From the NCBI GenBank assembly GCA_964587375.1, contig CAZPLE010000113.1, positions 1 to 38,732 of the forward strand: a stretch of DNA of 38,732 nt, written 5' to 3'. Positions 1 through 35,845 of this stretch are shown one piece after another. The DNA comes from an uncultured bacterium (GTDB lineage Bacteria > Ratteibacteria > UBA8468 > MWAK01). Numbering within the stretch: the first letter of the stretch is position 1; every line of letters begins with the position of its first letter. Made by a program: the position numbers and the translations under genes. Under the pieces are notes generated by a model. The model saw only the letters and a program-made list of their open reading frames with translations. It had not been told where the DNA came from and did not search any database.

Positions 1-120
1 CGTCCATTCGTGTTTGACCTAACTCCAGAGCCTATCTTCATAACGGGAATGGTGGAAAATCTGAATGAAATGAAAAATATGCTGGAAGGGATTAAAATAA
101 CCGAAAAAATTATAGAATAA
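1..120 (+). CDS. 3' end of an upstream CDS of unknown function (partial, runs off the window start)
   Basis: Frame 1 is open from base 1 to a TAA at 118-120 (...GMVENLNEMKNMLEGIKITEKIIE*). The next gene's Shine-Dalgarno AAAGGAGGAG follows immediately. No recognisable motif. Confidence 0.4.
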   Translation, partial: RPFVFDLTPEPIFITGMVENLNEMKNMLEGIKITEKIIE

Positions 121-137
121 AGAAAAGGAGGAGCTTT

Positions 138-815
138 ATGAAGGACAAAAAGAGAGATAAGAAGAAAAACTCCATTATTGAGTTTTTTGCCGTAGTGATA
201 ATGGTTATTGGGTTCTTTTTACCGACAGCATTCTGGGCCGCTCAGGCATTAGATGAATCTAAAGAGGAAAAAGAAATAACGCTCTGTGCAACAAATCTGC
301 AAAAGATTATGCGAGCGGTCTTTTTGTTTGCCCAAGACCATGACGATTACCTACCTACCGCGCATGACAACTATAAGATCTTCTGGTACGATATGCTCAA
401 ACCCTATGTGGAAGATATTGCGATTTTCCGCTGCCCATCTTTAAATTATCCTATCGGTTATGGTTGGAATGTGGCTCTTGGTGATAATAAAAGCAGCGAC
501 ACCAAAAACTATCTTACCAAACTGACGGAAGTACCTAATCCAGCAAAGACTTTGTTAATAGCTGACTCAGACCAGGCGGCTGCAGGTAATCCGGAAAAAG
601 GACATTATGCCATATCGGCATTTGGGCCCGGTTTTGATGAGTATGGCCTGAATCCAGAAGCGTTTAGGTGCAATTTTGTATCAAAACGGCATAAAGGGGG
701 TGCCAATGTAGCATTTGTAGATGGACATGTGGAATGGATGACCATAGAACAGATTTACCAGAAGAATGGAAACGACATAAACAACCCAGACTATACCATC
801 TGGGATACACGCTGA
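138..815 (+). CDS. H-X9-DG (DUF1559-type) pseudopilin-like protein with a degenerate prepilin-type N-terminus
   Basis: Strong SD (AAAGGAGGAG) lies upstream of the ATG. The N-terminal hydrophobic helix NSIIEFFAVVIMVIGFF resembles the FTLIELLVVIAII prepilin motif. The C-terminal HKGGANVAFVDGH gives H185-X9-D195-G196. Confidence 0.8.
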   Translation: MKDKKRDKKKNSIIEFFAVVIMVIGFFLPTAFWAAQALDESKEEKEITLCATNLQKIMRAVFLFAQDHDDYLPTAHDNYKIFWYDMLKPYVEDIAIFRCPSLNYPIGYGWNVALGDNKSSDTKNYLTKLTEVPNPAKTLLIADSDQAAAGNPEKGHYAISAFGPGFDEYGLNPEAFRCNFVSKRHKGGANVAFVDGHVEWMTIEQIYQKNGNDINNPDYTIWDTR

Positions 816-864
816 TTCTTTTTTGCATTTTTCCTATGCTTCAATTTCCCACCAAAAGAGAATA

Positions 865-3657
865 ATGGAATTCAACAAGAATTACGATCTTTCTTTACCT
901 GAGTGGGGGCCCTATTCCCCGCGTTATGCGGGAGGAGGACTTGTTGTTGATAAAGAAAAAGGATATCTGATGGAATTTCCGGTGGCGGTAGGGTATATCA
1001 ATTACCCACCCTCCTGCATCAAAGTTTATCCTCCTACCCCAAGTATCAATATTACCGCATGGGCCGCAAACGAAGAGATGGATTACTGGGTTTGGCGTTT
1101 TACGATGGACGACATCAATCGAAAACTTTGTTTAGCCAAATATGCCCTGATTGAATTTGTACCAGTGGATAAACATAGCATGGTTGTCTGTGCTTCCTTT
1201 TATAAGGAAATTTCTGGAGGGGTTGGTAGATTTACTTTTGACTTACTTTGTGGCCAATTTCCCTTGAAACCAAAGATTGCCATCAATAAAGGAAAAGACG
1301 ACCTATGGGTAAAGGCCTCTGAGTATTGCGAAATATACTCCCAATACCGGAATTATCTTGACGGTAGAAAACCGATGGTGTTCACTTATGAACCGTCCAC
1401 ATATCTCAGGTATGAGGGAGCAACTAATGGAGAGGCTCTTTACCTAAACTATAAAGACAAAGGAGTTGTTTACTATTTTCGATTGCCCCATACTTTAGGT
1501 GATGCTTACTTGGTATTTCGATACGCAACATTCTGGGCCGACGAAACCCAGCATTTTGATATCGAGTTGGACAATCAAAAGATAACCGTTCCTCTTCCAG
1601 TTAAAGGAACCTTTTCTCCTGGAAGTTCATTTGACGATTGGCTAACCGCAACTCATTATCTCGGAAAGTTGACAGAAGGTCGCCATAGACTCAAAATTAC
1701 GGTAAACACCACTTTGCCCAAGCGGCCAGCTCACATCTTGCTTGATGGGTTTGCCATTACCCGAAGTCTTCCTCCTAAAGATTTTTTTAGTCTCATTAAA
1801 GAACCTGAGGGCACTCTAAAAGTAATTAAGGATGTTCAGGCCAATTCAATGAGTTTGATCAACAAACGACTGGAAACCGACCAAATTTTTACCTTGTTAG
1901 GCAAGGGTGGAATGATAAGTTTAAGGGATATTAAAGGGGATGACATTACCGAAGCGCTGACCAAAATGGGTCCTTACTGGTATGTCCACGGTACATATCC
2001 CGGGCAAGGTATTGGCAGATGGTTAGACCTTAATATTTCTGACATCAGCGTTATACCCTTCGAAAAGAAGACAGTGTACGCTGTTGTAATAAGAGGCAAC
2101 GACCACGCCGGCAATGTAAGAACTGCCAAAAAAATACTTTCTCACGCAGAAGAGATTGTTAAAAAAAGGAGGGATCATTATCAGGATACCAAATACAAAG
2201 TGACTAACAAACATTACCAAACAGCGATGGAGCACAATGTGTCCGTTTCTCTAATGGCCGCGACATTTCCCAATATCAGGAAAGGAAAATATGTGAAGTT
2301 TTATGCTCCTCTCTCTGTTGACCGTAATTTTTGCTTTTGGGATGTTGGAGCGTTAGCCCTTGGACTTACTGAATATTCACCAAAACTTGCCCTGGAGGCA
2401 GCCGCAACTTATTTTACTGACGAAAACGAGGAATCGCTCGCCATTGAACATGGCTCCTACACCCCAACACCTGTATATGCGGTCTGGGAAGCCTATATCA
2501 AAACTGGTGATATTGAAATATTAAAATTTTTCTATCCAAGAATTAAACGCCTCTACGGACTACTCTCTGGAAATCACCCTAACTCTTTTTTTGACCCACA
2601 TAAGTTAAATCTGGTTAACGCTTACCATTACGAATATGAGTCCGCCTCCTGTGATGACTATCCAGTTTCAGGTGCCTGTACTCCTCCTCTAAACCACGAC
2701 TTTGAATTTCATCCCTGGCGAAGGAATCTCTATCTTCCAAAGAATCCGGTTAAATTTACCAGAGGGATTCAATGGCCTTCTGATGACGTAGGGTGTGCTG
2801 GTTTGACATCTCACGTGATAAGGCTGGCCAAGATTTTGCGGCTTTTTGCTTTCTTCTTGGGGTATAAAGAAGACCAAACTTTTTTTGATTCCCAGATTAA
2901 AAGGTTCTTTATCACCATGAATAAATATATGTGGGATGACAAAACAGGATATTTTGGCTGGACCAAAGGAAAGAACTACCAAATGATAAGAGACAAGAAT
3001 GGATTTAATTTCAACATGGGCATTGACGGAGTGATGCCACTGATTACTAAGGAGTGTACTCTTGATCAGGTAAGGAAGATGCTTTATAATCTGAAATCGC
3101 CTCGACATTTATGGACACGATGGGGTGTGACAAATGTAGATAAAAGCGCACCTTATTACATAGACGATGGATATTGGAATGGCTCGGTGTGGATGCCTCA
3201 CCAATGGTTTTTATGGAAAGCGATTCTTGATTACGACCCTGCGTTCGCTAAGAAAATTGCCAGAACTGCAGTAGAATTATGGTTTAGGGAGCATGAAAGA
3301 TTTCTTTCTCCTTTTGAATATTTTAAACACGGCGAAGGCTGCATTGGCGATTTCAGTAGTATATGTAATGCCTATGTTCTTAAATTTTTTGCTGCTTATT
3401 ACCAACACGGCAATGTAGTAGCAGGTTATGATACGGTCATCCACAAAGTTCGATATCATCCAAACAAAGATGCTCTTTCTATAACAATAAGTGCACCTTT
3501 CGGACCAGAAAGAGGTGGTCTGGTTGCAGTTTTATCACCCAGTAAAGAATACCGGATTGGGTCCAAAATTGTCCGTTCAGACGAAACTGGCGCAATCTCT
3601 TTAATGATAAAAACACCTCCGACGCCAGAAACAATAGAGATTATTTCTGCAAGATAG
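865..3657 (+). CDS. Large cytoplasmic glycoside hydrolase: unassigned N-terminal half plus a C-terminal (alpha/alpha)6-barrel GH63/MGH1-like domain
   Basis: The C-terminal half has six-hairpin glycosidase-like motifs (FCFWDVGALALGL, MGIDGVMPL, DDGYWNGSVWMPHQWFLWKAILDY). No signal peptide. The track ORF opens at a TTG at 823; the ATG at 865 (MEFNKNY) looks more likely. Confidence 0.7.
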   Translation: MEFNKNYDLSLPEWGPYSPRYAGGGLVVDKEKGYLMEFPVAVGYINYPPSCIKVYPPTPSINITAWAANEEMDYWVWRFTMDDINRKLCLAKYALIEFVPVDKHSMVVCASFYKEISGGVGRFTFDLLCGQFPLKPKIAINKGKDDLWVKASEYCEIYSQYRNYLDGRKPMVFTYEPSTYLRYEGATNGEALYLNYKDKGVVYYFRLPHTLGDAYLVFRYATFWADETQHFDIELDNQKITVPLPVKGTFSPGSSFDDWLTATHYLGKLTEGRHRLKITVNTTLPKRPAHILLDGFAITRSLPPKDFFSLIKEPEGTLKVIKDVQANSMSLINKRLETDQIFTLLGKGGMISLRDIKGDDITEALTKMGPYWYVHGTYPGQGIGRWLDLNISDISVIPFEKKTVYAVVIRGNDHAGNVRTAKKILSHAEEIVKKRRDHYQDTKYKVTNKHYQTAMEHNVSVSLMAATFPNIRKGKYVKFYAPLSVDRNFCFWDVGALALGLTEYSPKLALEAAATYFTDENEESLAIEHGSYTPTPVYAVWEAYIKTGDIEILKFFYPRIKRLYGLLSGNHPNSFFDPHKLNLVNAYHYEYESASCDDYPVSGACTPPLNHDFEFHPWRRNLYLPKNPVKFTRGIQWPSDDVGCAGLTSHVIRLAKILRLFAFFLGYKEDQTFFDSQIKRFFITMNKYMWDDKTGYFGWTKGKNYQMIRDKNGFNFNMGIDGVMPLITKECTLDQVRKMLYNLKSPRHLWTRWGVTNVDKSAPYYIDDGYWNGSVWMPHQWFLWKAILDYDPAFAKKIARTAVELWFREHERFLSPFEYFKHGEGCIGDFSSICNAYVLKFFAAYYQHGNVVAGYDTVIHKVRYHPNKDALSITISAPFGPERGGLVAVLSPSKEYRIGSKIVRSDETGAISLMIKTPPTPETIEIISAR

Positions 3658-3681
3658 GTTTAACTATTTAAGCAGTAAAAG

Positions 3682-4962
3682 GTGCTGAGAGTTTATTACG
3701 ATTTATCTATGAAAATCAAAGCTTACAAAATTGTTCACAATCATATAGAAAAGATTATGCCGCGCTTGGAAAGGCTTCCTACTGGAAGAATACCCTTTTC
3801 TTTCCTGTTAATTACCTATGGCCATTTTTACCCGGAGCAAATTTATTGCTGGGACTATTATCACATGGCAATACGTTTTGCTTACGCAGGCAAACCTGAC
3901 TATCTTAAATATTTGATTGACACACTTCTTTATTACCAGAGCCCTGATGGATTTACACCCAACTGTATCACCGAAAAGAGTGGTCCCATGCATTACTTTC
4001 CAAAATTTCATGCGCAACCTTTCCTGATGCAGGGGGCACTGGTGTATCTTTTCCAAACTGGAAATCTGCGTTGGGTGAAAGAGCAGTTTGATAAACTAAA
4101 AAAATATCTTGAATACTACTGGTATAATAATCTTACCCATCTTGGTCTCTTCCGGTGGTCTGTTTCCTGGATGAGCGGTATTGACAATGATGTAACCACT
4201 TCTTTTTCTCTTCCAGAGACTATCATCACAGCCGATATCAATGCTTGGTTATATCTTGAGTGTCGTTCAGCTACTATTCTGGCCAGCAGGCTGGGCAAAA
4301 AAAACGATGAGAAAATCTTCAAAGAAAAAGCTAAGACATTGCACCAGCTGGTAAATGATATTCTCTGGTATGAGGAGATGAGTTCTTATTCCGCTTACAA
4401 CCTTCTTACCGGTACTCACCACTTCCATTTAGGCAAGGGAACAGAGAGTGAAAGAGTTGGTTATTATGCCTTCCAATCTTGCTCCAACTTAATCCCTCTT
4501 TATGCTCAGATGGCTGATCGAAAAAGGGCCATTGATATGATTAAAAAGTATCTGCTACATGAAAAACATTTTTGGAGCCCCTATGGTATTCGCAGTCTAT
4601 CTAAGTCCAGCCCTTATTATAATAATGCCATCTTTGGTAATCCACCTCGTTTCGGGGAACATCATCGGATGACCAATTCCAACTGGCAGGGTCCAGTCTG
4701 GACACTTTTAAACTATTTTATGTTTCACGCCCTTATTCATTATGGATTCAAAAAAGAGGCGGAGGAACTGGTGGACAAAACAATGTTTCTTCTGGCATCC
4801 TCCCTTGAGAAGATTGGTTCTTTTACGGAGAATTATGATGCGGAAACCGGTCAGCCGCTTTTTGCCCCTGGTTATGGTTCCTGGAATATCTTGATGGATA
4901 TGATGTATCAAGAACTGAGAAGCGGTAAATGGATAATGGACCCAATCTTTGAAGAGATCTGA
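3682..4962 (+). CDS. GH63-like / MGH1-like (trehalase-fold) glycoside hydrolase, cytoplasmic
   Basis: Motifs WMSGIDNDVT, DINAWLY, YGIRSLS, NSNWQGPVWTLLNYFMFHAL and ENYDAETGQP are typical of (alpha/alpha)6 GH63/GH37-type enzymes. GTG start at 3682, with an alternative ATG at 3709. No signal peptide. Confidence 0.75.
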   Translation: MLRVYYDLSMKIKAYKIVHNHIEKIMPRLERLPTGRIPFSFLLITYGHFYPEQIYCWDYYHMAIRFAYAGKPDYLKYLIDTLLYYQSPDGFTPNCITEKSGPMHYFPKFHAQPFLMQGALVYLFQTGNLRWVKEQFDKLKKYLEYYWYNNLTHLGLFRWSVSWMSGIDNDVTTSFSLPETIITADINAWLYLECRSATILASRLGKKNDEKIFKEKAKTLHQLVNDILWYEEMSSYSAYNLLTGTHHFHLGKGTESERVGYYAFQSCSNLIPLYAQMADRKRAIDMIKKYLLHEKHFWSPYGIRSLSKSSPYYNNAIFGNPPRFGEHHRMTNSNWQGPVWTLLNYFMFHALIHYGFKKEAEELVDKTMFLLASSLEKIGSFTENYDAETGQPLFAPGYGSWNILMDMMYQELRSGKWIMDPIFEEI

Positions 4963-4979
4963 AGTGAATTGAATAAAAA

Positions 4980-6992
4980 ATGACCTTATTCCCCAAAAGA
5001 GCCATCCATCTTGATTTCCACACCATGCCGGCCGTCTCTGATGTTGGCCGGGATTTCAAAGCGGAAGAATTTGCTAAAACCCTGAAAAATTCAGGGGTTG
5101 ATTACATTACTGTCTTCGCTCGTTGTAATATAGGGTTTGCCTACTATCCAACCAGAATTGGAATAGTCCATCCCGGCCTGAAAGTGGACCTTTTAGGTGA
5201 AATAGTATCTGCCTGCCATCAGCATCACATACGGGTGGCTGCCTATTTCAATGCTGGGCTTGACCACGAACAGGCTCTCCGGCACCGGGAATGGTGCAAG
5301 GTGAATAAAGAAGGCCAGGTATATGAGATGGAGACGATAAAGCAGGAACGCTACAGCCATTTCTTCCGTAGAATGTGTCTGAATACCGGTTACCGGGAAT
5401 ACCTTCTCGGAATGGTGAAAGAAGTGCTGGAATGGTATCCGGTTGATGGCATTTTCCTGGATTGTTTTACCCTTTCTCCCTGTTATGGTGGGGAGTGTTT
5501 AGAAGAAATGAAGAAACTGGGTATGGACCCCCTGGACGAAGTTCAGGCTACAGAGTTCTGCTGGATGGTAACCAATCGCTTTCGAGAAGACACCACCAAA
5601 TTAGTGAAGAAATCACGGAAAGGTATTTATCTTTACTTTAACGGTCTACCCTATCAGGACCAGCCAGACCATATTGAGATAGAGGTTTTGCCCACCGGCG
5701 GCTGGGGATACGATTACCTACCCTGGGTTATCCGCTATGCTCGCACCTTGCAAAAGCCTTTCTTTACTGTGACCGGTAGATTTCATGAAAGTTGGGGTGA
5801 TTTTGGGGGGATAAGACCAGAACATTCTCTCTTTTTTGATTGTTACTATTCTTTGGCAAATACCGGGACCTGCATGGTTGGCGACCATATGCATCCTCGG
5901 GGAAAGTTGGAACCTGCAGTTTATGATCTGGTCCGGAACGTTTACATGCGGGTTAAAACTTTAGAACCATGGACTTATGGAGCCAGAGCCCGGGTGGAAA
6001 TATTAGTTATTGACCCAGATTTGAAGAGATTCCCTGGAGATCCATATTTTGACTCTACTCATCTTGCCGGGGCAGCCAGAATTCTGACGGAACTAAAATA
6101 TCAATTTAATATCAGTACTGGTGATGAAGATCTTTCCTTTTATCAGGTGGTAATTCTACCAGACAAGGTTCTCATTGATGATAGGTTAAGAGAGAAACTG
6201 CAGAAATACTTAGAGAAAGGAGGTTTTATTATCAGTTCCGCCATTTCCGGGCTGGACTCAAAGAAAAAAAAGTTTGCTCTCAAAGAGTACCGGATTGCCT
6301 ATCAGGGTCCAGAGCCCTATCACTATTCTTTCTTTGAAGCCCTTTCAGAAGTCAGTCAGGATTTACCGAAAATGGTTACTACCATTTACAACCCTGGTAT
6401 TGCGATGGTACCGAAAAAGGGTAGCAAAGTTTTAGCAAAACTTTATCAACCCTATTTTAACCTTAAGTCCTGGGATGGGTGCCATGAGAATTTATATATC
6501 CCCCCGGAAAAAGATTCTGGTCGGCCGGCATTGGTGCGTTGCGGCAACATTTTTCATTTCAGTTTCCCGATTTTCACCAGTTATTATGAACATGCAGTGG
6601 TGGCTTACAAAAATCTGGTTAGAAATTGTTTGAGGCTAATACTTCCCAGACCCCTAATTAGGGTAGAGGGACTACCTTCTTTCGGCCAGGTTACGGTTAC
6701 GCAGAAAGAAAAAGAGACCATGGTTCATATCTTGACCTACCTTCCAGAACTGAGAGGAAAAGAGATGCAGGTTATTGAAGAACCAATCACTGTGAGGGGA
6801 ATAAAACTGGCTTTAAAAGCCGAAGGACAAAAGATAAAGAAGGTTTATCTTGCTCCTTCGCGAAAACAGCTCAAGTTTGATTGGAAAGAAGACTACGTAA
6901 ACGTGGAGGTCCCGGAGGTTGAAGGTTATCAGTTAATTGTCTTTGAGTCTTGCTCACCTGAAAGGCTGATTTCTACAGGAGAGAATAAATGA
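4980..6992 (+). CDS. Putative glycoside hydrolase, GHL6-type TIM-barrel N-domain with a GH42-like middle/trimerisation-type region
   Basis: The N-terminus AIHLDFHT...GVDYITVFARCNIGFAYYPT matches my recollection of the 'hypothetical glycosyl hydrolase 6' family. A Cys cluster CFTLSPCYGGEC is reminiscent of the GH42 zinc site. No signal peptide. Confidence 0.6.
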   Translation: MTLFPKRAIHLDFHTMPAVSDVGRDFKAEEFAKTLKNSGVDYITVFARCNIGFAYYPTRIGIVHPGLKVDLLGEIVSACHQHHIRVAAYFNAGLDHEQALRHREWCKVNKEGQVYEMETIKQERYSHFFRRMCLNTGYREYLLGMVKEVLEWYPVDGIFLDCFTLSPCYGGECLEEMKKLGMDPLDEVQATEFCWMVTNRFREDTTKLVKKSRKGIYLYFNGLPYQDQPDHIEIEVLPTGGWGYDYLPWVIRYARTLQKPFFTVTGRFHESWGDFGGIRPEHSLFFDCYYSLANTGTCMVGDHMHPRGKLEPAVYDLVRNVYMRVKTLEPWTYGARARVEILVIDPDLKRFPGDPYFDSTHLAGAARILTELKYQFNISTGDEDLSFYQVVILPDKVLIDDRLREKLQKYLEKGGFIISSAISGLDSKKKKFALKEYRIAYQGPEPYHYSFFEALSEVSQDLPKMVTTIYNPGIAMVPKKGSKVLAKLYQPYFNLKSWDGCHENLYIPPEKDSGRPALVRCGNIFHFSFPIFTSYYEHAVVAYKNLVRNCLRLILPRPLIRVEGLPSFGQVTVTQKEKETMVHILTYLPELRGKEMQVIEEPITVRGIKLALKAEGQKIKKVYLAPSRKQLKFDWKEDYVNVEVPEVEGYQLIVFESCSPERLISTGENK

Positions 6993-8338
6993 AGAGAAAG
7001 ATTGTCTTGCTGGCAGGATTTCTTTCGTTCATAGCCATCTGGTGGTTTAGGTATTATGGCTTATGGAAGACGAACCCCTCTGGTTCTAATCAGAAAATAA
7101 CGATCGAATTCTTAAACTGGGAGAGTACACCAGAGGGTTCAAAATTTCTGAATAATCTGATAAGGCAATTTGAATCAAAAAACCCTGGCATTAAAGTCAA
7201 AAATGTAGTGATTACCAAAGACTACAATAGAGTTCTTCTGACCAGATTTGCTAGTGGCTCCCCACCGGATATCTTTGAAATCCAGGCGGAGATAATCCAC
7301 CCTTTTTTGAAGAAAAATCTCCTATTAAATCTTTCACCCCTGGTCAAAAAAAGTAAGGTATTGAAGGAGAAAGATTTTTTCCCACTCTCTCTGATAAACT
7401 TTCGATATGATGGTAAAAACTTTCGTCAGGGCGACCTCTATGGTTTTCCGAAAGATTGGGGCACCGGGGTACTTATTTACAACAAGGACCTATTTGACAA
7501 AGAAGGCCTATCCTACCCTGACGGTTCCTGGGGAGAAGAAGAGTATTTAGAAGCAGCCATTAGACTAACCAAAAGAGACCATTCTGGCAGATTAATCCAG
7601 GTCGGAATTGAAAGACCTGTCCATCCATTTTATACGCTTTTGCAGAAAGGCGGAAGAATCTGGAGCCAAGATTACAAAGAGTGCCTCCTGAACAGCCAGG
7701 CGGCAAGAGAGGCCTTTCAGTTTGATTATGATTTAAAAGAAAAGTATCGAGTGGCGCTACGTGAGCAAGAGATTAAAGAAGGTTTAACAGAAAGTTTTGG
7801 TTTCAAAGCAGGTAAGGCCGGGATGAGCCTGGCTTGGAGATATGAACTACCGGATATGATAAAGCACATAAAGTATTTCCGATGGGACGTGGCTCCCTTA
7901 CCTGTGATTGGAGAAAAGAGGGTTCAACTGATGCACGGACCTTCTGGGTGGGCTATCTCGGCAAAGACCAAATACCCTGAAGCCGCCTTCAAATTTTTGG
8001 AATTTTTGGCTGGTAAAGAAGGCCAGATAGAGACCGCAAAACTGGGTTGGAATATTCCTTCCAACCGAGAGATTGCTTATTCCCATTTCTTTTTGAAAAA
8101 CTTGAGAAGAGAAGACTCCGAAAGGATAAATAGGGTTTTTCTTGATGCTATAGACTATCTTGACCCTTCGCTTTTAAATCCCTACTTACCGCTATCCAGG
8201 TTTTACGATATTCTAAACTCAGAACTTGACCCTGAAGTAATCACCAGAAAATATGGAAGAAAGGTCGCACCAGCACTGGAGAGAGCAGTGGAAAGGATAA
8301 ATAAAGAGATTGAGGAGAATCTGGAGGAAAATCTATGA
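6989..8338 (+). CDS. ABC transporter extracellular solute-binding protein (family 1, carbohydrate type), N-terminally membrane-anchored
   Basis: Length and motif pattern are typical of sugar SBPs (KITIEFLNWES..., GFPKDWGTGVLIYNKDLF, GPSGWAIS). The N-terminal hydrophobic segment has no lipobox Cys. Both flanking genes overlap it by 4 nt (ATGA). Confidence 0.85.
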   Translation: MKRKIVLLAGFLSFIAIWWFRYYGLWKTNPSGSNQKITIEFLNWESTPEGSKFLNNLIRQFESKNPGIKVKNVVITKDYNRVLLTRFASGSPPDIFEIQAEIIHPFLKKNLLLNLSPLVKKSKVLKEKDFFPLSLINFRYDGKNFRQGDLYGFPKDWGTGVLIYNKDLFDKEGLSYPDGSWGEEEYLEAAIRLTKRDHSGRLIQVGIERPVHPFYTLLQKGGRIWSQDYKECLLNSQAAREAFQFDYDLKEKYRVALREQEIKEGLTESFGFKAGKAGMSLAWRYELPDMIKHIKYFRWDVAPLPVIGEKRVQLMHGPSGWAISAKTKYPEAAFKFLEFLAGKEGQIETAKLGWNIPSNREIAYSHFFLKNLRREDSERINRVFLDAIDYLDPSLLNPYLPLSRFYDILNSELDPEVITRKYGRKVAPALERAVERINKEIEENLEENL

Positions 8339-9495
8339 AAGAATACAAACTGCCTAACGGTGAATTTCAGAGGCGCTGGCAAAAGGTTCAGGAACGAATG
8401 CACCAAGCCGAGTTGGACGTGCTACTCGTCCACTCAAACGAGGCTGACTTTGCCAATGTGCGGTATCTTTCTGACTACTGGCCTATCTTTGAATCGGCAG
8501 GTGTCCTGATTCCTGCGGAAGGAGAAGCGGCTCTGCTTATCGGCCCAGAAAGCGAAACCTTTGCCAGAGACCGCAGCCGGATTAAAAAGATTTACAAGAT
8601 GATAGAATACCGGGAAAGCGCAGAGCCTGATTACCCGACCATCAAGGTTGATACTTTTGAAGGTATCTTCCGGAAGATGTTCGGAAATAAAAAGATTAGG
8701 AAGGTTGGCCTGGAAGGTTACCAAATCTTTCCCTTACCAATTTACGAAAGTTTAAAAAAAGCCTTGCCATCAGCCGAAATAGTCAAAAGTAACCTTGTCT
8801 CGGATTTAAGGATTATTAAAAGTCCTGCAGAACTGGCCATGCTACAGGAATCCTTCCGCATTTCCGAAATCGCCCTGGAGAACACCATCAAGCAGATCAA
8901 CCCGGATATGACCGAACTGGAAGTGGTGGGCATTATTGAAAAAGAACTCTACACCAATGGCGCCGAATATGAAGCTCATCCTCAGTATGTCCTTGCTGGA
9001 AAGAATTCTACGCACGCTATCGGAAGGCCAGGTTATCAAAAGTTGGGCAAAGGTAGGCTGGTACAACTGAATATTGGTGGCCGAATTGCCGGTTATTCTG
9101 GCAGTGTTGGCCGACCCCTGTGCTTTGGTAAGATGCCCAAAAGGATGCGCCAACTTGTCCAGGCAGGTTTAGACTTACACCAAAAGACTATGGAATGGAT
9201 GAAACCTGGTATTATTGCTAAAGAGATTGCTGAAAAGTTCTTCCGTTATGCCCAAAAGATAGGGGTGGCAAAAAATCTCCTCTATGGTCCCTGCCACGGC
9301 TTAGGTTTGATAGAGGTGGAACGTCCCTGGATGGAATCTCATTCCGACTACCCTCTCCAAGAAAATATGACCTTTCAGGTTGATACCTTCCTTTATACCC
9401 AAGAATTTGGTCTGCGTTGGGAGGATGGCGTTTCGGTCACCAAAGATGGTATACAATCTTTTTCCAATAAATTACAGGAGATTATAGAACTATAG
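8335..9495 (+). CDS. Creatinase/prolidase-fold (M24 family) protein, probably not a canonical metallopeptidase
   Basis: It has a creatinase-type N-domain plus a pita-bread C-domain (GRLVQLNIGGRIAGYSGSVGRP, CHGLGLIEVERP, GLRWEDGVSVTKDG). Two positions normally held by metal-binding Asp read N246 and S257. Confidence 0.8.
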   Translation: MKEYKLPNGEFQRRWQKVQERMHQAELDVLLVHSNEADFANVRYLSDYWPIFESAGVLIPAEGEAALLIGPESETFARDRSRIKKIYKMIEYRESAEPDYPTIKVDTFEGIFRKMFGNKKIRKVGLEGYQIFPLPIYESLKKALPSAEIVKSNLVSDLRIIKSPAELAMLQESFRISEIALENTIKQINPDMTELEVVGIIEKELYTNGAEYEAHPQYVLAGKNSTHAIGRPGYQKLGKGRLVQLNIGGRIAGYSGSVGRPLCFGKMPKRMRQLVQAGLDLHQKTMEWMKPGIIAKEIAEKFFRYAQKIGVAKNLLYGPCHGLGLIEVERPWMESHSDYPLQENMTFQVDTFLYTQEFGLRWEDGVSVTKDGIQSFSNKLQEIIEL

Positions 9496-9499
9496 CTAT

Positions 9500-10411
9500 A
9501 TGGAAAGATTGGTAAGAGTAGTGGTTGGCATTGACGTAGAGACCGATGTAGGTAGTTGGACACCTTACTACCGGGGAGTGGAAGAAGGTCTCCCTAAGCT
9601 TCTGGAAATCTTTGCCCGTCAAAAGGTAAAGGCTACTTTTTTCTTTACCGGAGAGGCAGCGGCAAGATTTCCAGAGAAAAGCAGAGAAGTTATCAAAGCG
9701 GGCCACGAGGTCGGTTGCCACTCCCTTTACCACGAGACAGTGGGTGACCAACTCTTTCCTATCCCAGGGATAAAACCTCTTCTGCCGGAAGAGGTGCCCT
9801 TGAGATTGAAAAGAGCTACCGAAATGGTAGCAGAAGCAGCAGGGACCAGACCGGTCTCTTTCCGGGCACCCAGGCTCTGGGGTAGTACTGTAATGGTTAA
9901 TGCGCTGGAAGACCTCGGTTATGTCGTAGACGCCACCTATCCCCTCTACTACTACCGAAAAAGGCTCTTCCCCTACCACCCCAGCCGAAAAAACTGGCTG
10001 GAGGAAGGCGAAAGTCGTCTTCTGGAAATACCGGTCTTTGCTGACATCACCCAAGAAAGTACCGATCCTTACGGAAGAGATTTGGATCAGTGGCCGGTTT
10101 TTCGGACGAAAGGAGCGGCAGCGCTATTGAAGATGGTCAACAACTTTTTGGGTTATCTGAAAACCCTGGATAACGAAAAATTGAAAGGTAAGATTCCGGT
10201 GCTCTGTTTCTACTTCCATCCCTGGGAGTTCATTTCCCTCCCTAAAAGATATCATTACGGTGAAGGGACCGTCTTGCCTGACCCTTTTACTATCAAGGAT
10301 TGCGGAAAAAAGGCTTGTTATGAACTGGAGGATTTTATCCTGCGTCTTAAAAGGGGATATCGGGTAAACTTTTTGAGCGCCAAAGAACTGGCAGAAAAGT
10401 ATAAGAAATGA
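9500..10411 (+). CDS. Polysaccharide deacetylase (CE4 / NodB-homology) family protein, cytoplasmic
   Basis: NodB-type motifs are present: GIDVETD, HEVGCHSLYHE (H-S-x-x-H) and RAPRLWG. No signal peptide. Confidence 0.8.
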   Translation: MERLVRVVVGIDVETDVGSWTPYYRGVEEGLPKLLEIFARQKVKATFFFTGEAAARFPEKSREVIKAGHEVGCHSLYHETVGDQLFPIPGIKPLLPEEVPLRLKRATEMVAEAAGTRPVSFRAPRLWGSTVMVNALEDLGYVVDATYPLYYYRKRLFPYHPSRKNWLEEGESRLLEIPVFADITQESTDPYGRDLDQWPVFRTKGAAALLKMVNNFLGYLKTLDNEKLKGKIPVLCFYFHPWEFISLPKRYHYGEGTVLPDPFTIKDCGKKACYELEDFILRLKRGYRVNFLSAKELAEKYKK

Positions 10412-10434: not shown

Positions 10435-10764
10435 TCAGGGAATACTGGTTGCTTCCTCCAGCCAGGCAAGATAGGGCTGGTAACCAGCAGTAATGGGTAG
10501 GGCAATAATCTCAGGGGTTTGATAGGAATGGAGTTTTTTAACCAAAGCAGCAACCTTTTGAAAATTACTTTCTCTGGTCTTTACTAACAACAAAACCTCC
10601 CGGCTGGTCTCAACCTTTCCCTTCCACCAGAAAAAAGAGTCTATTCCCTTAACCAGATTGATGCAGCCAGCCAATCTTTGAAAAAGGAGTGCCTCCTTAA
10701 TTCTTAAAGCCTCCTTCTGCGAGGAAGCAGAGATTAACACAACGATATACCCGGTCTTTTTCAT
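10435..10764 (-). CDS. cutA: Divalent-cation tolerance protein CutA
   Basis: 109 aa with the typical CutA1 pattern (CINLVKGIDSFFWWKGKVETSREVLLLVKT...HSYQTPEIIALPI). Confidence 0.85.
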   Translation of the reverse strand: MKKTGYIVVLISASSQKEALRIKEALLFQRLAGCINLVKGIDSFFWWKGKVETSREVLLLVKTRESNFQKVAALVKKLHSYQTPEIIALPITAGYQPYLAWLEEATSIP

Positions 10765-11003: not shown

Positions 11004-11627
11004 CTAAAGTTTCACCTGGATGGAATCCAAAGCGGTGCGAAACCCAGTTTCATAGCCGGCGAAATCTCTGACTGGAGCCTGACAGATAACCTGAATAATC
11101 TCCCCTTTTCTGATAAAATAGGTTTCTATAGATTTAAAACTTTCTGTCTCCAGCACCAGTTCCACTGCGTCCAAGCTGGAAATCTTTCGTTCTCTTCTAC
11201 TTAAGACCCTGGTTTTTGGAAAATCTTCCGCTTCCTGTAAAAGCCGCACCTCTTCCTCTTCTGTCATGGAAAATACCTTCGGCGCAATCTTTGCCAGTCC
11301 TTTTCCCATACTGAACCAAAGGGATTCAATCTTTTCCAACTGTTGGAGTGATTCATCAACGTATTGAGTAAGGGGCTTACCGCCGGAAGGAAAGTCATAA
11401 ACAGAGATAAAGACCTCATCATTATCCGAAGATTCAAAAAAGTATCGGCCATTTTTAACCATTTTGAAACCGCCTGCCAGTTCGGGTTCACCCTGTTTCC
11501 ATCCCTTAGGCGGCTGGATAGAAAAACCCAACTCTTTGATAGCAAATCGGCTCCTACCACAACCGGAGAGAACGGCTAACGAAAAAGAGAGGAGAAGAAT
11601 TACACACCTTAGAAAAAGTTTGCTCAT
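11004..11627 (-). CDS. Lipoprotein of unknown function (possibly a DcrB/PsbP-like fold)
   Basis: Signal peptide with lipobox LSGC (MSKLFLRCVILLLSFSLAVLSGCG). The track ORF extends to 11663, but the M at 11627 gives a proper signal peptide. The fold assignment is a guess. Confidence 0.55.
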   Translation of the reverse strand: MSKLFLRCVILLLSFSLAVLSGCGRSRFAIKELGFSIQPPKGWKQGEPELAGGFKMVKNGRYFFESSDNDEVFISVYDFPSGGKPLTQYVDESLQQLEKIESLWFSMGKGLAKIAPKVFSMTEEEEVRLLQEAEDFPKTRVLSRRERKISSLDAVELVLETESFKSIETYFIRKGEIIQVICQAPVRDFAGYETGFRTALDSIQVKL

Positions 11628-11701
11628 CTTTTTCTCTTTCGCACCTGAAAAACTATTCTCCAAACAGAGAAATAAATTTTGTGGTTGTTTCTTTCAAAGA
11701 G

Positions 11702-18371: not shown

Positions 18372-19154
18372 ATGGAGCTGAAAGATAAGATGGCAGTGGT
18401 AACTGGGGCCGCACAAGGTCTGGGTGAACACCTCTCAGAACGGCTGGTAAAAGAAGGCGCCATTGTCAACCTTTGGGACGTAAGCGAAAAGGTGAAGAAC
18501 ACAGCAGAAAGGATTGCCCAAGCCTTTCCCGGGAAAGCCTTCGGGAAGGTGGTTGATGTTACTAATGAAACCCAGGTAGAAGAGGCAGTACAAGAGATCA
18601 AAAGAAGATGGGGAAGGCTAGAGATAATGGTTGCCAATGCCGGAATTGTAATCGCCCACGAAATTACCGAATTTCCTCTCAGTGATTGGCAGAAGATTAT
18701 TGCGGTAAACCTCACCGGGTACTTTATCTGTGCCCGAGCAGCGGCGCGTATAATGAAGGAACAGAAATCCGGTGTGATTATCCAAATAAATTCCAAAAGC
18801 GGGAAAAAAGGAAGTTATAAAAATAGTGGTTACGCAGCCAGTAAATTTGGTGGCATCGGCCTTACTCAGAGTATCGCCCTGGACCTGGCTCCTTACGGAG
18901 TAAGGGTCAATGCGGTCTGTCCAGGAAACCTTTTAGATTCTCCCCTGTGGCAGGAGAGCCTTTACGACCAGTATGCGAAGAAGTGGGGCATCTCAAAGGA
19001 GGAAGTGCGCAAAAAATATATAGAACAGGTTCCATTAGGACGGGGCTGTACTTACGAAGATGTGGCCAACGTAGTGGTCTTCTTAGCAAGCGAAAAATCA
19101 TCTTACATGACTGGCCAGGCGATCAATGTCACTGGTGGTCAGGAGATGCGGTAA
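18372..19154 (+). CDS. SDR-family oxidoreductase, sorbitol-6-phosphate 2-dehydrogenase (SrlD)-like
   Basis: VVTGAAQGLG, the NAG motif and YxxxK (YAASK) are present. It resembles E. coli SrlD, as I recall that sequence, over IIQINSKSGKKGS..NSGY.A.KFGG.GLTQS.ALDLA.YG and GQAINVTGGQ. Confidence 0.85.
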   Translation: MELKDKMAVVTGAAQGLGEHLSERLVKEGAIVNLWDVSEKVKNTAERIAQAFPGKAFGKVVDVTNETQVEEAVQEIKRRWGRLEIMVANAGIVIAHEITEFPLSDWQKIIAVNLTGYFICARAAARIMKEQKSGVIIQINSKSGKKGSYKNSGYAASKFGGIGLTQSIALDLAPYGVRVNAVCPGNLLDSPLWQESLYDQYAKKWGISKEEVRKKYIEQVPLGRGCTYEDVANVVVFLASEKSSYMTGQAINVTGGQEMR

Positions 19155-19177
19155 GTAATCTTGCGGAGGAAGATAAG

Positions 19178-20293
19178 ATGAAGATTACGGAAAGGGGGCT
19201 AAAAAGACTAAACCAGGAATTTGATGGTTATCTGGAAGGGAAAGCGGTTGAGGAGTTTTTCCAAGAGTTTGATATCAAATTTGCTGCCGGACACTGGTGT
19301 GCTGGAGACTTTTTAGACCGCTTTGCTGTTGGAGGATACCATCCTCACTTAAAGTCTGACATCATAAGTCAATTGGAACGGGTGGCTGCTGCCGGCATCC
19401 AGGGTGTGGAATTTCACGAAAATCTCTTCACTGATAAAAAACGCCAAAGAGATGACCAGCGCATACGAGAAGTAAAGAATGCCTTGAAAAGGTTGGGATT
19501 AACTCCCACCAATATGAATATTAATCTCTGGACCGACCCTTATTGGAAGTTTGGAGGTTTGACCAATCCAGACAAAGGTATTCGGAAAGAAGCGGTTGCG
19601 GTAGCGCTCCAGGGTGCCGAAATAGCCAAAGAGTTAGGATGTTCTTCTGTCTCTCTCTGGCCCGGTGCAGATGGTTGGGACTATAACTTTGAGGCAAACT
19701 ATGGGGTACTCATTAAGTACTTTATAGAAGGTTGCTGTAAAATAAATATGAAGGCGAAAAGGCTGGGGCTCCGTTTTGGTATTGAAGCCAAGATGAAAGA
19801 ACCCAGAGAAGGACATATGGTTGTACCCACTACCCACTGCGCCATCCTGATGGCAAAAAAAGTTAATGAAATCTGTGGTGGTACCAATATGGGTGTGACG
19901 GTGGATTATGGCCACGAAATGATGAATGGCATTGAACCTGCCTTCAGTCTCTACCTGGCAAAAGAGTTCGGTGTTCCGGTAGTCAACTTTCACATTAATG
20001 CCGCTAAGTGGCGATCAAATGATGAGGATCGAGTAGCTGGCACCTCAAATCTATGGGAACTGGTTGATTTTTGCTATGCGGCTCTGGATACTGGCTATTC
20101 TGGCTGGTTTGGAGAGGACCAATTTACCTATCGGATGGATCCGGTGAAGGCGATGTCCCTGTCGCGAGAGTTCTTCGCTAACATAATGAAGAAGGCCCTC
20201 CTTATTTGGAAGAAGAGAGCAAACCTCTCTGCTGCCCAGCAGACTGGTGATGCAGGTAGAACGCTTGAGGTGGTAAAGAAGATTCTCTTCTAA
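19178..20293 (+). CDS. Xylose-isomerase-like TIM-barrel sugar isomerase (divergent, class-I XylA-like)
   Basis: The ATG at 19178 is preceded by GGAGGAAG. The track ORF's upstream 77 codons overlap the SDR gene in another frame. By-eye alignment to class-I xylose isomerase covers FAAGHWCAGDFLDRF, GVEFHE, RFGIEAKMKEPRE, VDYGHE, FHIN, NDEDR and GYSGWFGEDQ. Confidence 0.75.
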   Translation: MKITERGLKRLNQEFDGYLEGKAVEEFFQEFDIKFAAGHWCAGDFLDRFAVGGYHPHLKSDIISQLERVAAAGIQGVEFHENLFTDKKRQRDDQRIREVKNALKRLGLTPTNMNINLWTDPYWKFGGLTNPDKGIRKEAVAVALQGAEIAKELGCSSVSLWPGADGWDYNFEANYGVLIKYFIEGCCKINMKAKRLGLRFGIEAKMKEPREGHMVVPTTHCAILMAKKVNEICGGTNMGVTVDYGHEMMNGIEPAFSLYLAKEFGVPVVNFHINAAKWRSNDEDRVAGTSNLWELVDFCYAALDTGYSGWFGEDQFTYRMDPVKAMSLSREFFANIMKKALLIWKKRANLSAAQQTGDAGRTLEVVKKILF

Positions 20294-20300
20294 AAGAGAG

Positions 20301-22004
20301 ATGGCAACTCCAAAAAGGTACAGCCTGGGTCTTGATTTCGGAACAAACTCTGTGCGGGCGCTCATCATTAACCTTTCCGAAGGCAAAGAGGTGGCCAGTT
20401 CCATCTGGAATTACCGGCGGGGGAAAGAAGGTATCATTACCTTGCCTGACAACCCCCACCTGGCGCGTCAGCATCCAGCGGATTACATTGAAGGGACAAT
20501 GGAATCTGTCAGGAGAGTGTTAAGATTAGCAAAGAAGAATGAGCCCGCCTTCTCTGCGCAGAATATCATTGGAATCGGAGTGGATACTACCGGAAGCACC
20601 CCTATACCAGTTGACGCTGCTGGCCAGCCGCTGGCTTTTGACAAAAGGTTCCATCAGAACCCTAATGCCCTTGCCTGGCTCTGGAAAGACCATACTTCTG
20701 CAGAAGAAGCGGAAGAGATTACCGAAAAGGCACAAAAAACCCACCCAGAGTATTTGAAGCGCTGTGGAGGTCGTTATTCCTCAGAATGGTTCTTTGCCAA
20801 GATTCTCCACCTTGCTCGCACCGACCCAGAGGTTTATAAAGCTAGCGTCAGCTTCGTAGAACTTGCCGATTTTATCCCGGCTCTTCTTACCGGCAATCTG
20901 GTCCCTCATAGAATCTTGCGTAGCATATGTGCTGCTGGCCATAAAGCCCTTTATTGCCGCAGATGGAACGGCCTGCCCTCAGAAGAATTTCTCGCTTCCC
21001 TTGACCCTCAGTTAAAAGGATTAAGGAAACGTCTTTATGAAAAGGCGTATCCTGCTGGTAAAAGGGCAGGTGGCCTCTGTAAAGAATGGGCAAAGAGGTT
21101 GGGTTTAAAAGAAGGGATTGCGGTAAGTGTGGGTGCCTTTGATGCTCATATTGGAGCAGTAGGAGCAGGCATAAAAGAGAGCGGATTGGTAAAGGTGATC
21201 GGAACCTCCACCTGCGATATGATGGTCTTTCCAATGGCAGAGGAGTCAAGATTGGAAGAGATTGAGGGTATGTGTGGTCTGGCAGAAAGTTCCATTATCC
21301 CCGGTTTAATAGGGTTAGAAGCCGGACAGTCTGCGGTAGGGGACATCTTTGCCTGGTTTGTCAAAAATTTGGTGCCGGAAAGATACGTACGGGCCGCACG
21401 CAGATACAAAATAGCGCTCCAGACTTACCTCAGTAAAAAAGCCTCGCTTCTCCAACCCGGTGAGGCTGGACTTTTAGCCCTTGACTGGAATAACGGTAAT
21501 CGTTCCCTTCTTGGGGACCAGAAGCTCACCGGACTATTGGTTGGGCAGACGCTGGCTACCAAACCAGAAGAGGTTTACCGAGCACTGATTGAAGCCACCG
21601 GATTTGGTGCTCGGATAATCATTGACCGAATTGAGGAGTCAGGAGAAAAGATCTCTGAGATTATCACCTGTGGAGGTATTCCTAAAAAGAACCCGCTCTT
21701 GATGCAGATTTACTGCGACATCTTCAATCGCCCCATCAGGATTGCTGCTTCTGACCAGACCTGTGCCCTGGGCGCGGCTCTTTTTGGCGCAGTGGCTGCC
21801 GGTAAAAGAGCTGGCGGTTTCGCCGCCATCTCCGAAGGCCAAGAGATCTTTTGTCGGTACGAAAAAGATGAGTATCGTCCCAACCCGAATTGTGCCGCTA
21901 TTTATCAGAAATTATACCGACTTTACCGGCAGTTGCACGACGCCTTTGGAAGGCCAGAAGGCTCCCTCTTTTCCATAATGAAGGAACTTTTGAACCGTGA
22001 CTAA
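20301..22004 (+). CDS. araB: Ribulokinase (FGGY family, AraB-like)
   Basis: At 567 aa it is close to E. coli AraB's 566. The N-terminus YSLGLDFGTNSVRALII...HPADYIEG parallels AraB IGLDFGSDSVRA...HPRDYIES. FGGY C-terminal motifs are present. Confidence 0.85.
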   Translation: MATPKRYSLGLDFGTNSVRALIINLSEGKEVASSIWNYRRGKEGIITLPDNPHLARQHPADYIEGTMESVRRVLRLAKKNEPAFSAQNIIGIGVDTTGSTPIPVDAAGQPLAFDKRFHQNPNALAWLWKDHTSAEEAEEITEKAQKTHPEYLKRCGGRYSSEWFFAKILHLARTDPEVYKASVSFVELADFIPALLTGNLVPHRILRSICAAGHKALYCRRWNGLPSEEFLASLDPQLKGLRKRLYEKAYPAGKRAGGLCKEWAKRLGLKEGIAVSVGAFDAHIGAVGAGIKESGLVKVIGTSTCDMMVFPMAEESRLEEIEGMCGLAESSIIPGLIGLEAGQSAVGDIFAWFVKNLVPERYVRAARRYKIALQTYLSKKASLLQPGEAGLLALDWNNGNRSLLGDQKLTGLLVGQTLATKPEEVYRALIEATGFGARIIIDRIEESGEKISEIITCGGIPKKNPLLMQIYCDIFNRPIRIAASDQTCALGAALFGAVAAGKRAGGFAAISEGQEIFCRYEKDEYRPNPNCAAIYQKLYRLYRQLHDAFGRPEGSLFSIMKELLNRD

Positions 22005-28957: not shown

Positions 28958-28975
28958 CCCTCCTTTTTTCATATA

Positions 28976-35536: not shown

Positions 35537-35845
35537 GTGGAATTAAAGGTTATCGTCCGTAACAATACGGATTTTCCTCCTTTATTGGAGGAGTATCTCT
35601 CCAAAAAAGTAGAGCGTCTGAAGCGTTATACTAACCAGGGTGCTCTTAGTGTGGAAGCGATTGCCTCAGAGGAAGGGCCTCAAAAGGTATGTGAACTCCT
35701 CACCCGATTAAAGGGAAAGGAAATCTTTGCGCGGGGGAAAGGAGATGATTTCAAAAAGGCGATTGATGAGGTCCACCAACGATTTAAAATGCAACTGGAA
35801 AAATACTTTAAAAAGAAGATTGATTCCAAAAGGAGGATTAAATGA
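35537..35845 (+). CDS. hpf: Ribosome hibernation promoting factor (short HPF/RaiA type)
   Basis: 102 aa, with a GTG start 5 nt after AGGAGG. The N-terminus (VIVRNNTDFPPLLEEYLSKKVERLKRY) is typical of sigma54-modulation / S30EA proteins. Confidence 0.85.
   Translation: MELKVIVRNNTDFPPLLEEYLSKKVERLKRYTNQGALSVEAIASEEGPQKVCELLTRLKGKEIFARGKGDDFKKAIDEVHQRFKMQLEKYFKKKIDSKRRIK

Follow-up and report, generated by a model that had tools for sequence, protein, structure and literature searches.

The window analysed here is a complete contig of 38,732 nucleotides (nt) from an uncultured bacterium of the Ratteibacteria (CAZPLE010000113.1), in which open reading frame (ORF) listing and translation placed seven co-directional genes on the + strand, spanning positions 138-10411. 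These genes, numbered g1 to g7 from 5′ to 3′, encode a pseudopilin-like protein of the H-X9-DG (DUF1559) family, three glycoside hydrolases (GH), a solute-binding protein (SBP) of the ATP-binding cassette (ABC) type, a protein with an M24 fold and a deacetylase of carbohydrate esterase family 4 (CE4). Comparison with related loci identified the locus as a lineage-specific form of a type of glycan operon, poor in transporters, that is common in the PVC-like (Planctomycetota-Verrucomicrobiota-type) and other Gram-negative phyla sampled here. Its features are as follows.

1..120, + strand: 3′ end of an upstream ORF, 39 codons and stop, clipped by the contig end (direct sequence reading)
125..133, + strand: Shine-Dalgarno-like sequence AAGGAGGAG, 4 nt 5′ of the g1 start codon (direct reading)
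138..815, + strand: g1, H-X9-DG/DUF1559-type pseudopilin-like protein, 225 aa (TIGR04294)
865..3657 (alternative start TTG 823), + strand: g2, MGH1-like/GH63-type protein, 930 aa, cytoplasmic (Pfam)
3682..4962 (alternative start ATG 3709), + strand: g3, MGH1-like/GH63-type hydrolase, 426 aa, cytoplasmic (Pfam)
4980..6992, + strand: g4, GH151-family hydrolase with GHL6 TIM barrel and GH42M-like domain, 670 aa, cytoplasmic (Pfam, PDB 6TVK)
6989..8338, + strand: g5, membrane-anchored CUT1-type ABC sugar-binding protein, 449 aa (Pfam SBP_bac_1)
8335..9495, + strand: g6, M24-fold (creatinase/prolidase-like) protein, 386 aa (Creatinase_N and Peptidase_M24)
9500..10411, + strand: g7, CE4-type deacetylase, 303 aa, cytoplasmic, final gene of the run (Polysacc_deac_1)
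10435-10764, - strand: CutA1, the gene after g7, convergent (Pfam scan of contig ORFs)

The genes are tightly packed, with gaps of 49 nt between g1 and g2 (7 nt if g2 starts at TTG 823), 24 nt between g2 and g3, 17 nt between g3 and g4 and 4 nt between g6 and g7, and with ATGA overlaps joining g4 to g5 (6989-6992) and g5 to g6 (8335-8338). The start of g2 was placed at TTG 823 by the ORF lister and at ATG 865 by the public gene call on a JGI contig (L001). The ORF listing thus confirmed the gene spacing and overlaps reported in a first-pass annotation made from the same DNA. That annotation had also described a seven-gene operon led by the H-X9-DG protein, a description that cannot be demonstrated, as a same-strand ORF (1-120) precedes g1 and the contig is cut at this point. 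The stop codon of this ORF, which is also called as a gene on L001, lies 17 nt before the g1 ATG, and the ORF probably shares a transcription unit with g1-g7. Because it abuts g1 and the contig ends there, the unit comprises at least eight genes and its 5′ end is lost. With nothing visible 5′ of position 1, neither a leading position of g1 nor the lack of a regulator can be asserted, and an upstream permease would be equally out of view.

The 39-residue upstream fragment had no Pfam match, showed no BLAST similarity to ORFs of related loci and, compared by eye, did not resemble the C-termini of the regulators of those loci. Exact-protein look-ups with g1, g6 and three cluster mates, made for a longer copy of the contig 5′ end, returned only fragments of the same region or nothing. 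The independent JGI contig L001, of 994 nt, breaks at the identical base upstream of g1, a coincidence that may point to repeated or strain-variable DNA immediately 5′ of the window. A scan for consensus promoters and terminators gave sites that were fewer than, or similar in number to, those of shuffled sequence.

A GH151, M24-fold and CE4 core conserved across phyla

The comparison covered 80 loci centred on GH151, each taken with flanks of 10 kb, and two contigs whose genes carried Pfam labels (L-numbers are locus labels). It was run with all seven proteins of the window, with a profile of the H-X9-DG family, and with queries for a regulator, permeases and SBPs. Gene runs unbroken on the same strand (directons) were scored for 79 loci, L008 being omitted as a duplicate of L004. 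The GH151 gene adjoins a gene for an M24-fold protein, often together with a CE4 gene, in L003, L007, L011, L013, L014, L017 and L021, and the two are more loosely linked in L004, L015, L055, L061, L069 and L075. This linkage spans Omnitrophota, Verrucomicrobiota, Armatimonadota, Chloroflexota and Firmicutes; in Cohnella (Firmicutes), CE4-M24 pairs lie 4-5 kb downstream of GH151. Orthologues of g7 stand beside GH151/M24 in L003, L007, L013, L017, L021, L055 and L069. The conserved core of these loci is therefore GH151 with a non-canonical M24-fold protein and a CE4 enzyme.

The remaining genes of the window were distributed differently. Homologues of g2 and g3 were found in no other sampled GH151 locus, and the exact seven-gene set occurs in no other sampled locus. 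Homologues of g5 were confined to Firmicutes loci, where presumed permease ORFs come after the SBP gene. The directon counts were as follows.

PVC-like and other Gram-negative phyla, 54 directons: ABC permease in 0, SBP in 0, protein with at least five transmembrane (TM) segments in 4, H-X9-DG in 9
Firmicutes, 21 directons: ABC permease in 4, SBP in 4, protein with at least five TM segments in 4, H-X9-DG in 0
Chloroflexota, 4 directons: ABC permease in 0, SBP in 0, protein with at least five TM segments in 1, H-X9-DG in 0

An H-X9-DG gene is part of the GH151 directon in L005, L016, L023, L024, L025, L053, L061, L068 and L072, and stands directly 5′ of GH151 in L025, L053 and L061. The duplicate pair L004/L008 also carries one, outside the directon counts. 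In L005, which among the Omnitrophota relatives with long flanks is the closest (its GH151 is 75% identical), the directon includes a canonical H-X9-DG gene, placed between a GH29-like gene and a GH123N/LamG gene. H-X9-DG genes overlap downstream hydrolase genes in the ATGA manner in L005 and L053.

Other genes recurred around GH151 in the sample. A pair of zinc-type alcohol dehydrogenase (ADH) genes directly flanks it in L003 (4639-6698), L004 (12002-14061), L014 (3104-5105), L024 (7918-9956), L031 (6564-8614) and L032 (3266-5337); the window has no such pair, and its SBP gene takes the position after GH151. In L024, L031 and L032 the ADH pair is accompanied by an ORF with an N-terminal FIDIHVHTR motif, which we read as putatively amidohydrolase-like, and in L024 and L031 also by a Cys-rich ORF of about 306 aa. 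DUF6259 proteins directly precede GH151 in L003 (573-2246, 557 aa) and L004 (5040-9722, 1560 aa), and several GH151 homologues themselves carry a DUF6259 Pfam match. The N-terminal half of g2 was considered as a DUF6259 relative and rejected, as phmmer found no match at 1e-5 to the L003 and L004 proteins that precede GH151. Genes for a URO-D-like and an MTTB-like (methyltransferase-type) protein lie within the GH151 directon of L005 (12136-17111).

The enzymes of the operon

Profile searches against Pfam and NCBIfam, the check proposed by the first-pass annotation, reproduced its domain calls for g1-g7. Both g2 and g3 contain a GH63/MGH1-like (alpha/alpha)6 domain above the Pfam gathering score, and neither gave an equivalog-level NCBIfam match. 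For g2 (PF22422, 59.6 bits against a cutoff of 27; PF03200, 31 bits), this domain covers approximately residues 490-805, that is, the C-terminal third, and the N-terminal half has no family match. The protein matched Thermus TTHA0978 weakly in the PDB, and a word-index search at E<=1e-10, with weaker matches outside the listing, returned the query alone. The shorter g3 scored 121.8 bits with PF22422 (cutoff 27) and had distant PDB matches to GH63 glucosidase I and YgjK.

The third hydrolase, g4, had been called GHL6-like; it does match the GHL6 and GH42M profiles, and is better described as a full-length relative of the GH151 alpha-L-fucosidases. It aligned with PDB 6TVK at E 5e-101 (query 7-656, chain 33-686), along the full length and with the same domain order. 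More than 3700 homologues were found, the 120 listed being 53-77% identical and the best listed coming from Omnitrophota metagenome-assembled genomes, and the family alignment has 76 invariant columns. The conserved partners of g4 (M24-fold and CE4 proteins) and the downstream ribulokinase and AraD-family genes give no particular indication of fucose.

Matches of g6 to PF00557 (113.9 bits) and PF01321 (55 bits) identify a pita-bread fold with a creatinase-type N-terminal domain. When g6 was aligned to Pyrococcus prolidase 1PV9, the ligand positions of the M24 fold were occupied by N246, S257, H321, D350 and E363 in place of the canonical D, D, H, E and E of M24 metallopeptidases. In the alignment of GH151-linked g6 orthologues, which has 13 rows but 12 distinct sequences because L004 and L008 represent one contig, the S/H/D/E positions are kept throughout; the first position has N in 10 rows and D or C in the other 3. 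Given these non-canonical ligands, M24-fold protein is the proper label, and the residues present suggest that this type of M24 partner is probably not a dinuclear metallopeptidase. The last gene product, g7, has a NodB domain (PF01522, 62.4 bits) with the H-S/T-x-x-H signature of CE4 enzymes; its motifs are DVETD12, HSLYH74 and RAPR122, so that motif 1 reads DVETD, not TFDD.

No N-terminal hydrophobic segment was found by hydropathy, the method used here, in g2, g3, g4, g6 or g7. Hydropathy gave such a segment only in g1 and g5, in agreement with the split between envelope and cytoplasmic products first drawn from the sequence.

g1 is a divergent member of the H-X9-DG family

The assignment of g1 to the H-X9-DG proteins was borne out by its match to TIGR04294, the profile of the C-terminal H-X9-DG motif (32.7 bits, cutoff 19). 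Its score with PF07596 (DUF1559, "SBP_bac_10") was 22.7 bits, just below the gathering score of 23.3, and only the C-terminal 30 residues were matched. The motif reads H185-KGGANVAFV-D195-G196, and the full length of g1 aligns with family members at E values down to 1e-19 to 1e-21. A word-index homologue search recovered only the query itself, and an exhaustive HMMER search gave 9113 representative clusters at E<=1e-3 and 374 at 1e-10, the closest relative being about 37% identical and the best full-length matches having 200-240 aa, like g1. In an alignment of 37 sequences, g1 keeps all invariant positions (E15, C50, W83, Y90, C99, H185, D195 and H197), among them the conserved cysteine pair and W/Y core formed by C50, W83, Y90 and C99. 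Further features shared with the family are the CPS cysteine, the CxxNL(K/Q)(Q/K)I segment and a long N-terminal helix that carries Glu+5, and in size g1 fits the short subfamily (~200-240 aa). No other H-X9-DG family member is encoded in the 38.7-kb contig.

g1 departs from its family at the prepilin site, where, with a slash at the cleavage position, the 37-sequence alignment reads ..KKG/FTLIELLVVIAIIAILAA.. in the family and ..KKK/NSIIEFFAVVIMVIGFF.. in g1. The motif G/F-T-L-I-E is thus replaced by K10/N11-S-I-I-E15, in which Gly-1 and Phe+1 are lost and Glu+5 is kept; g1 also has a 3-residue insertion in the helix, and no match to PF07963 (prepilin methylation) was found by Pfam. Type IV pilin processing needs the Gly-1/Phe+1 site of prepilin peptidase. 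With this site lost, we infer that g1 is neither processed nor polymerized, and it probably stays anchored in the membrane rather than being built into a fibre. Hydropathy gave a single N-terminal membrane segment, and the AlphaFold2 model (pLDDT 80) consists of a 55-residue N-terminal helix (13-67) and a small beta domain, presumably periplasmic, in which C50 and C99 form a probable disulfide. A Foldseek search of this model against the PDB returned nothing with E below 1.

H-X9-DG genes behind sugar-type regulators

In the GH151 loci, a regulator with a GntR helix-turn-helix (HTH) and a Peripla_BP domain lies directly 5′ of an H-X9-DG gene in L016 (126-2017), L024 (12988-15446), L031 (13950-15789), L032 (11197-13330), L049 (15745-17525) and L053 (8134-9956). 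The same type of regulator is found one gene further 5′ in L004 (2041-4954), a Verrucomicrobiota GH151 operon in which a 233-aa PEP-CTERM-tailed protein (3352-4053) is encoded between the regulator and the H-X9-DG gene. This protein is another envelope-sorted accessory in the same position. In some GH151 loci the regulator precedes two tandem H-X9-DG genes.

An independent sample of 80 H-X9-DG-centred metagenome loci yielded 91 gene units, for which 37 same-strand upstream neighbours were scanned. Peripla_BP_3/LacI-type regulators accounted for 7 of these neighbours, GntR HTH proteins for 2 (which may overlap the 7), AraC proteins for 3 and ArsR for at least 1, so that LacI/GntR/AraC-type regulators make up about 30% of the same-strand upstream neighbours (n = 37). 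Such regulators represent a few per cent of the genes of a typical genome by our own rough reckoning, and measured against that share the observed proportion is, by this estimate, well above expectation. Downstream neighbours included beta-helix proteins (4), CBM9 (2), GH5, acetyl-xylan esterase, 3-keto-disaccharide hydrolase and GDSL proteins, and were otherwise mixed.

No SBP or ABC permease homologue was found anywhere in the 80 H-X9-DG-centred loci, just as none was found in the 54 directons of PVC-like and other Gram-negative phyla, and the conserved link between H-X9-DG proteins and an SBP that the first-pass annotation had raised as a possible lead is thus supported by neither sample. 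From the regulator-rich upstream side and the missing SBP, it follows that H-X9-DG genes are often the first structural gene behind a sugar-type regulator, without an SBP partner. H-X9-DG genes have a reproducible context, behind sugar-type regulators and at the head of transporter-less hydrolase operons.

The solute-binding protein and the missing transport genes

The SBP encoded by g5 belongs to family 1 (SBP_bac_1, 127.4 bits), and its best PDB match was 6RJY, a protein that binds arabino-oligosaccharides (E 8e-34). Hydropathy gave g5 a single TM segment, at the N-terminus, and no lipobox cysteine is visible. No ABC permease was found in the window by jackhmmer with permease-position ORFs of Paenibacillus and Cohnella, which had been assigned by position, size and hydropathy without Pfam confirmation, and no BPD_transp_1 permease was matched by Pfam among the other contig ORFs of at least ~110 aa, sequence upstream of position 1 being out of view. 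Pfam likewise gave no ABC_tran ATPase, TonB-dependent receptor, SusD or sugar regulator among the scanned ORFs of the 38.7-kb contig. The reported lack of a transporter core and of a regulator thus stands within the contig, and a wider absence is not claimable with the 5′ end cut.

In its pairing of a CUT1-type SBP with cytoplasmic hydrolases, the locus resembles CUT1 ABC uptake operons of the 6RJY type and the GH151 loci of Paenibacillus and Cohnella. It differs from them in having no permease genes beside the SBP gene or elsewhere in the contig and in the membrane anchoring of g5, which shows no lipobox cysteine; furthermore, the H-X9-DG gene of the window has a counterpart in none of the Firmicutes loci. 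With the SusC/SusD polysaccharide utilization loci (PULs) of Bacteroidota it shares the co-location of hydrolases with envelope substrate-binding proteins, presumably under sugar control, but it has no TonB-dependent transporter, SusD, hybrid two-component regulator or extracytoplasmic function (ECF) regulator, and its enzymes are all cytoplasmic. The locus is neither a SusCD PUL nor a complete CUT1 ABC operon. The first-pass annotation was correct in seeing that it fits neither layout; the absence of a transporter core, which it took for an oddity, is the norm in these phyla.

Interpretation of the locus

We read the seven genes as what can be seen of an operon of at least eight genes, induced by its substrate and serving glycan or glycoside catabolism in a probably Omnitrophota-like Gram-negative bacterium. 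In it, lineage-specific additions, including an H-X9-DG envelope accessory, would have joined the cross-phyla core, and we give this reading a probability of about 0.55. On the best-supported reading, two GH63/MGH1-like hydrolases, an orphan CUT1 SBP and a short, degenerate H-X9-DG protein were recruited in this lineage into one transcription unit with the widespread catabolic module of GH151, M24-fold protein and CE4. In such an operon, an oligosaccharide or small glycoconjugate would reach the periplasm, where the anchored SBP (g5) would bind it and presumably hand it to an ABC permease and ATPase whose genes lie upstream or in another part of the genome. Once inside the cell, the substrate would be trimmed by the three hydrolases, the CE4 enzyme (g7) would take off an acetyl group and the M24-fold enzyme (g6) would cleave a non-glycosidic, amide-type bond. 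g1 would be a co-regulated envelope accessory placed in the inner membrane with its N-terminus in and its C-terminus out. Judging from genomic context, its most likely role is the capture or retention of the operon's substrate at the envelope, since, in phyla whose operons have no transporters of their own, hydrolase operons under sugar control repeatedly begin with an H-X9-DG gene.

Several observations weigh against this interpretation. The co-transcription of g1-g7 is read from spacing, the promoter and terminator scan having been uninformative; the pairing of an SBP with an H-X9-DG protein is unique to the window; and the fold of g1 has no significant match among solved structures, so that no binding function can be read from it. 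L007, the next closest relative, has a complete GH151-M24-CE4 run with no H-X9-DG gene in its directon, and none was seen in L003, whose first ORF is clipped by the contig end and has no family assignment. The H-X9-DG family is so abundant that some chance adjacency is to be expected, and its density was 12 genes in 552 kb inside GH151 directons against 7 in 712 kb outside, a difference of about twofold that is not significant. The operonic link between H-X9-DG and hydrolase genes that the first-pass annotation had raised as a possibility does recur, in 9 of 54 directons, without significant enrichment over the flanks.

These figures bear most directly on the view that the placement of g1 is a chance adjacency, in which one member of a huge paralogous family scattered through genomes happens to lie beside hydrolases and its position is meaningless. 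The size of the family (9113 representative clusters at E<=1e-3), the modest and non-significant twofold density, the majority of GH151 directons without an H-X9-DG gene, the close relative L007 included, and the lack of a close g1 orthologue in the searches made all speak for it. However, g1 is the sole H-X9-DG gene in 38.7 kb, follows a strong Shine-Dalgarno sequence, with gaps of 17 and 49 nt to the adjoining genes, and belongs to a family in which about 30% of upstream neighbours are LacI/GntR/AraC-type regulators, above their roughly estimated genome share, and in which ATGA-type overlaps with downstream hydrolase genes occur (L005 and L053); we consider mere chance quite improbable.

It appears unlikely that the contig end truncates an ordinary ABC sugar operon, with a regulator, two permeases and perhaps an ATPase just upstream and g1 as an incidental passenger. 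Such an operon would fit the same-strand ORF that ends 17 nt before g1 and runs off a contig that is the whole window and of which no longer copy was found, the GntR/LacI-type regulator that relatives often have directly 5′ of the H-X9-DG gene, and the SBP and two permeases that Firmicutes GH151 loci do have. Yet those transporter-bearing loci run in the order SBP, two permeases and GH151, whereas here the SBP gene overlaps the M24 gene through ATGA with no permease after it; the 39-residue C-terminus upstream has no Pfam match or similarity to the regulators or permeases of related loci, and an ABC permease occurs in 0 of 54 GH151 directons of PVC-like phyla. It is very improbable, moreover, that g1 serves as the pseudopilin of a machinery resembling type II secretion that exports the operon's enzymes. 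Its N-terminal helix and Glu+5 are pilin-like, and in canonical relatives the GFTLIEL motif is present together with a match to the N_methyl family of Pfam, but the G-1/F+1 cleavage site is missing from g1, the scanned contig ORFs include no gene for a secretin, ATPase or prepilin peptidase, and the five enzymes, having no N-terminal hydrophobic or signal segment, cannot be cargo of such a system.

A wider proposal extends the catabolic-operon reading from g1 to its family. H-X9-DG/DUF1559 proteins of PVC-type bacteria, Omnitrophota and allied lineages might capture glycans for uptake as pilin-like adaptors, each encoded in an operon, specific for its substrate and induced by the LacI/GntR/AraC-type regulator of that operon. 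They would work either in a shared pilus- or pseudopilus-like machine of the envelope or, as is probable for g1, anchored in the membrane, and would do the job that falls to SusD or an SBP in other phyla. We regard this as tentative and, at present, doubtful. Polysaccharide capture by pilin-type proteins has parallels in the fibres of Planctomycetes, in which dextran binds to pili-like structures before its active uptake into the periplasm (PMC5394234), and in the xylan-responsive type IV pili of Caldicellulosiruptor (bioRxiv 10.1101/614800). The literature searched ties no such fibre to DUF1559, and g1 lacks the cleavage site needed for assembly.

Substrate clues and the remainder of the contig

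The clues to a substrate are that GH151 enzymes are annotated as alpha-L-fucosidases, that g5 resembles an arabino-oligosaccharide binder and that a ribulokinase and an AraD-family epimerase-like gene lie 10-12 kb downstream. That CE4 and M24-fold proteins are conserved partners suggests a glycoside that is acetylated and also amide-linked or conjugated in some other way. For the compatible-solute-type substrate suggested earlier, nothing specific was found beyond family names.

A second sugar cluster occupies positions 18372-23755 of the + strand. One of its genes encodes a short-chain dehydrogenase/reductase that passes the cutoff for sorbitol-6-phosphate dehydrogenase, and another a TIM barrel resembling xylose/rhamnose isomerases. 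The cluster also encodes a ribulokinase, which exceeds the equivalog cutoff with 680 bits, a class II aldolase that resembles L-ribulose-5-phosphate 4-epimerase but scores under the family cutoffs and, at its end, a URO-D-like protein (22631-23755). A fucose pathway, composed of GH151 with the downstream FGGY kinase and class II aldolase, was considered and rejected, as the kinase passes the ribulokinase equivalog cutoff and the aldolase-family protein fits L-ribulose-5-phosphate 4-epimerase far better than fuculose-phosphate aldolase. By these profile matches, the cluster points to putative pentose (arabinose-type) catabolism rather than fucose. The URO-D-like and MTTB-like genes of L005 and the URO-D-like gene of the window may serve to remove methyl groups from methylated sugars or amines.

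The rest of the contig consists of housekeeping genes according to Pfam scans. Two 219-aa ORFs without Pfam match (11004-11663 and 28313-28972) were compared as possible paralogues and are unrelated. At 35842-38045 (+ strand), genes for EIIA (fructose/nitrogen type) and Enzyme I of a phosphotransferase system (PTS) lie beside lipopolysaccharide (LPS)-transport and 3-deoxy-D-manno-octulosonate (KDO) genes, and this PTS(Ntr)-type pair probably has a regulatory role and does not transport sugar.

Significance

DUF1559/H-X9-DG is among the largest protein families without a known function; Planctopirus limnophila alone has 68 DUF1559 paralogues, two of them essential (PMC10632474). The literature searched assigns no function to DUF1559, in agreement with the first-pass annotation. 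By itself, the window adds one divergent member of this family in a truncated operon. The locus is a modest lead on DUF1559 function and not a conserved SBP-pseudopilin system, and we attach less significance to it than was given at first, because the SBP link is unique to it, the H-X9-DG/GH151 link is loose, the absence of transporters is normal for these phyla and the operon start is missing. A second module deserves note, namely, GH151 with the non-canonical M24-fold protein and CE4, which is conserved across at least five phyla. Were H-X9-DG proteins indeed glycan adaptors, this would account for the huge expansion of the family and for the transporter-less hydrolase operons of these phyla, as well as for the binding of dextran to pili-like fibres before uptake in Planctomycetes. 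The comparative context turns the lead into a hypothesis that is genetically testable in tractable planctomycetes.

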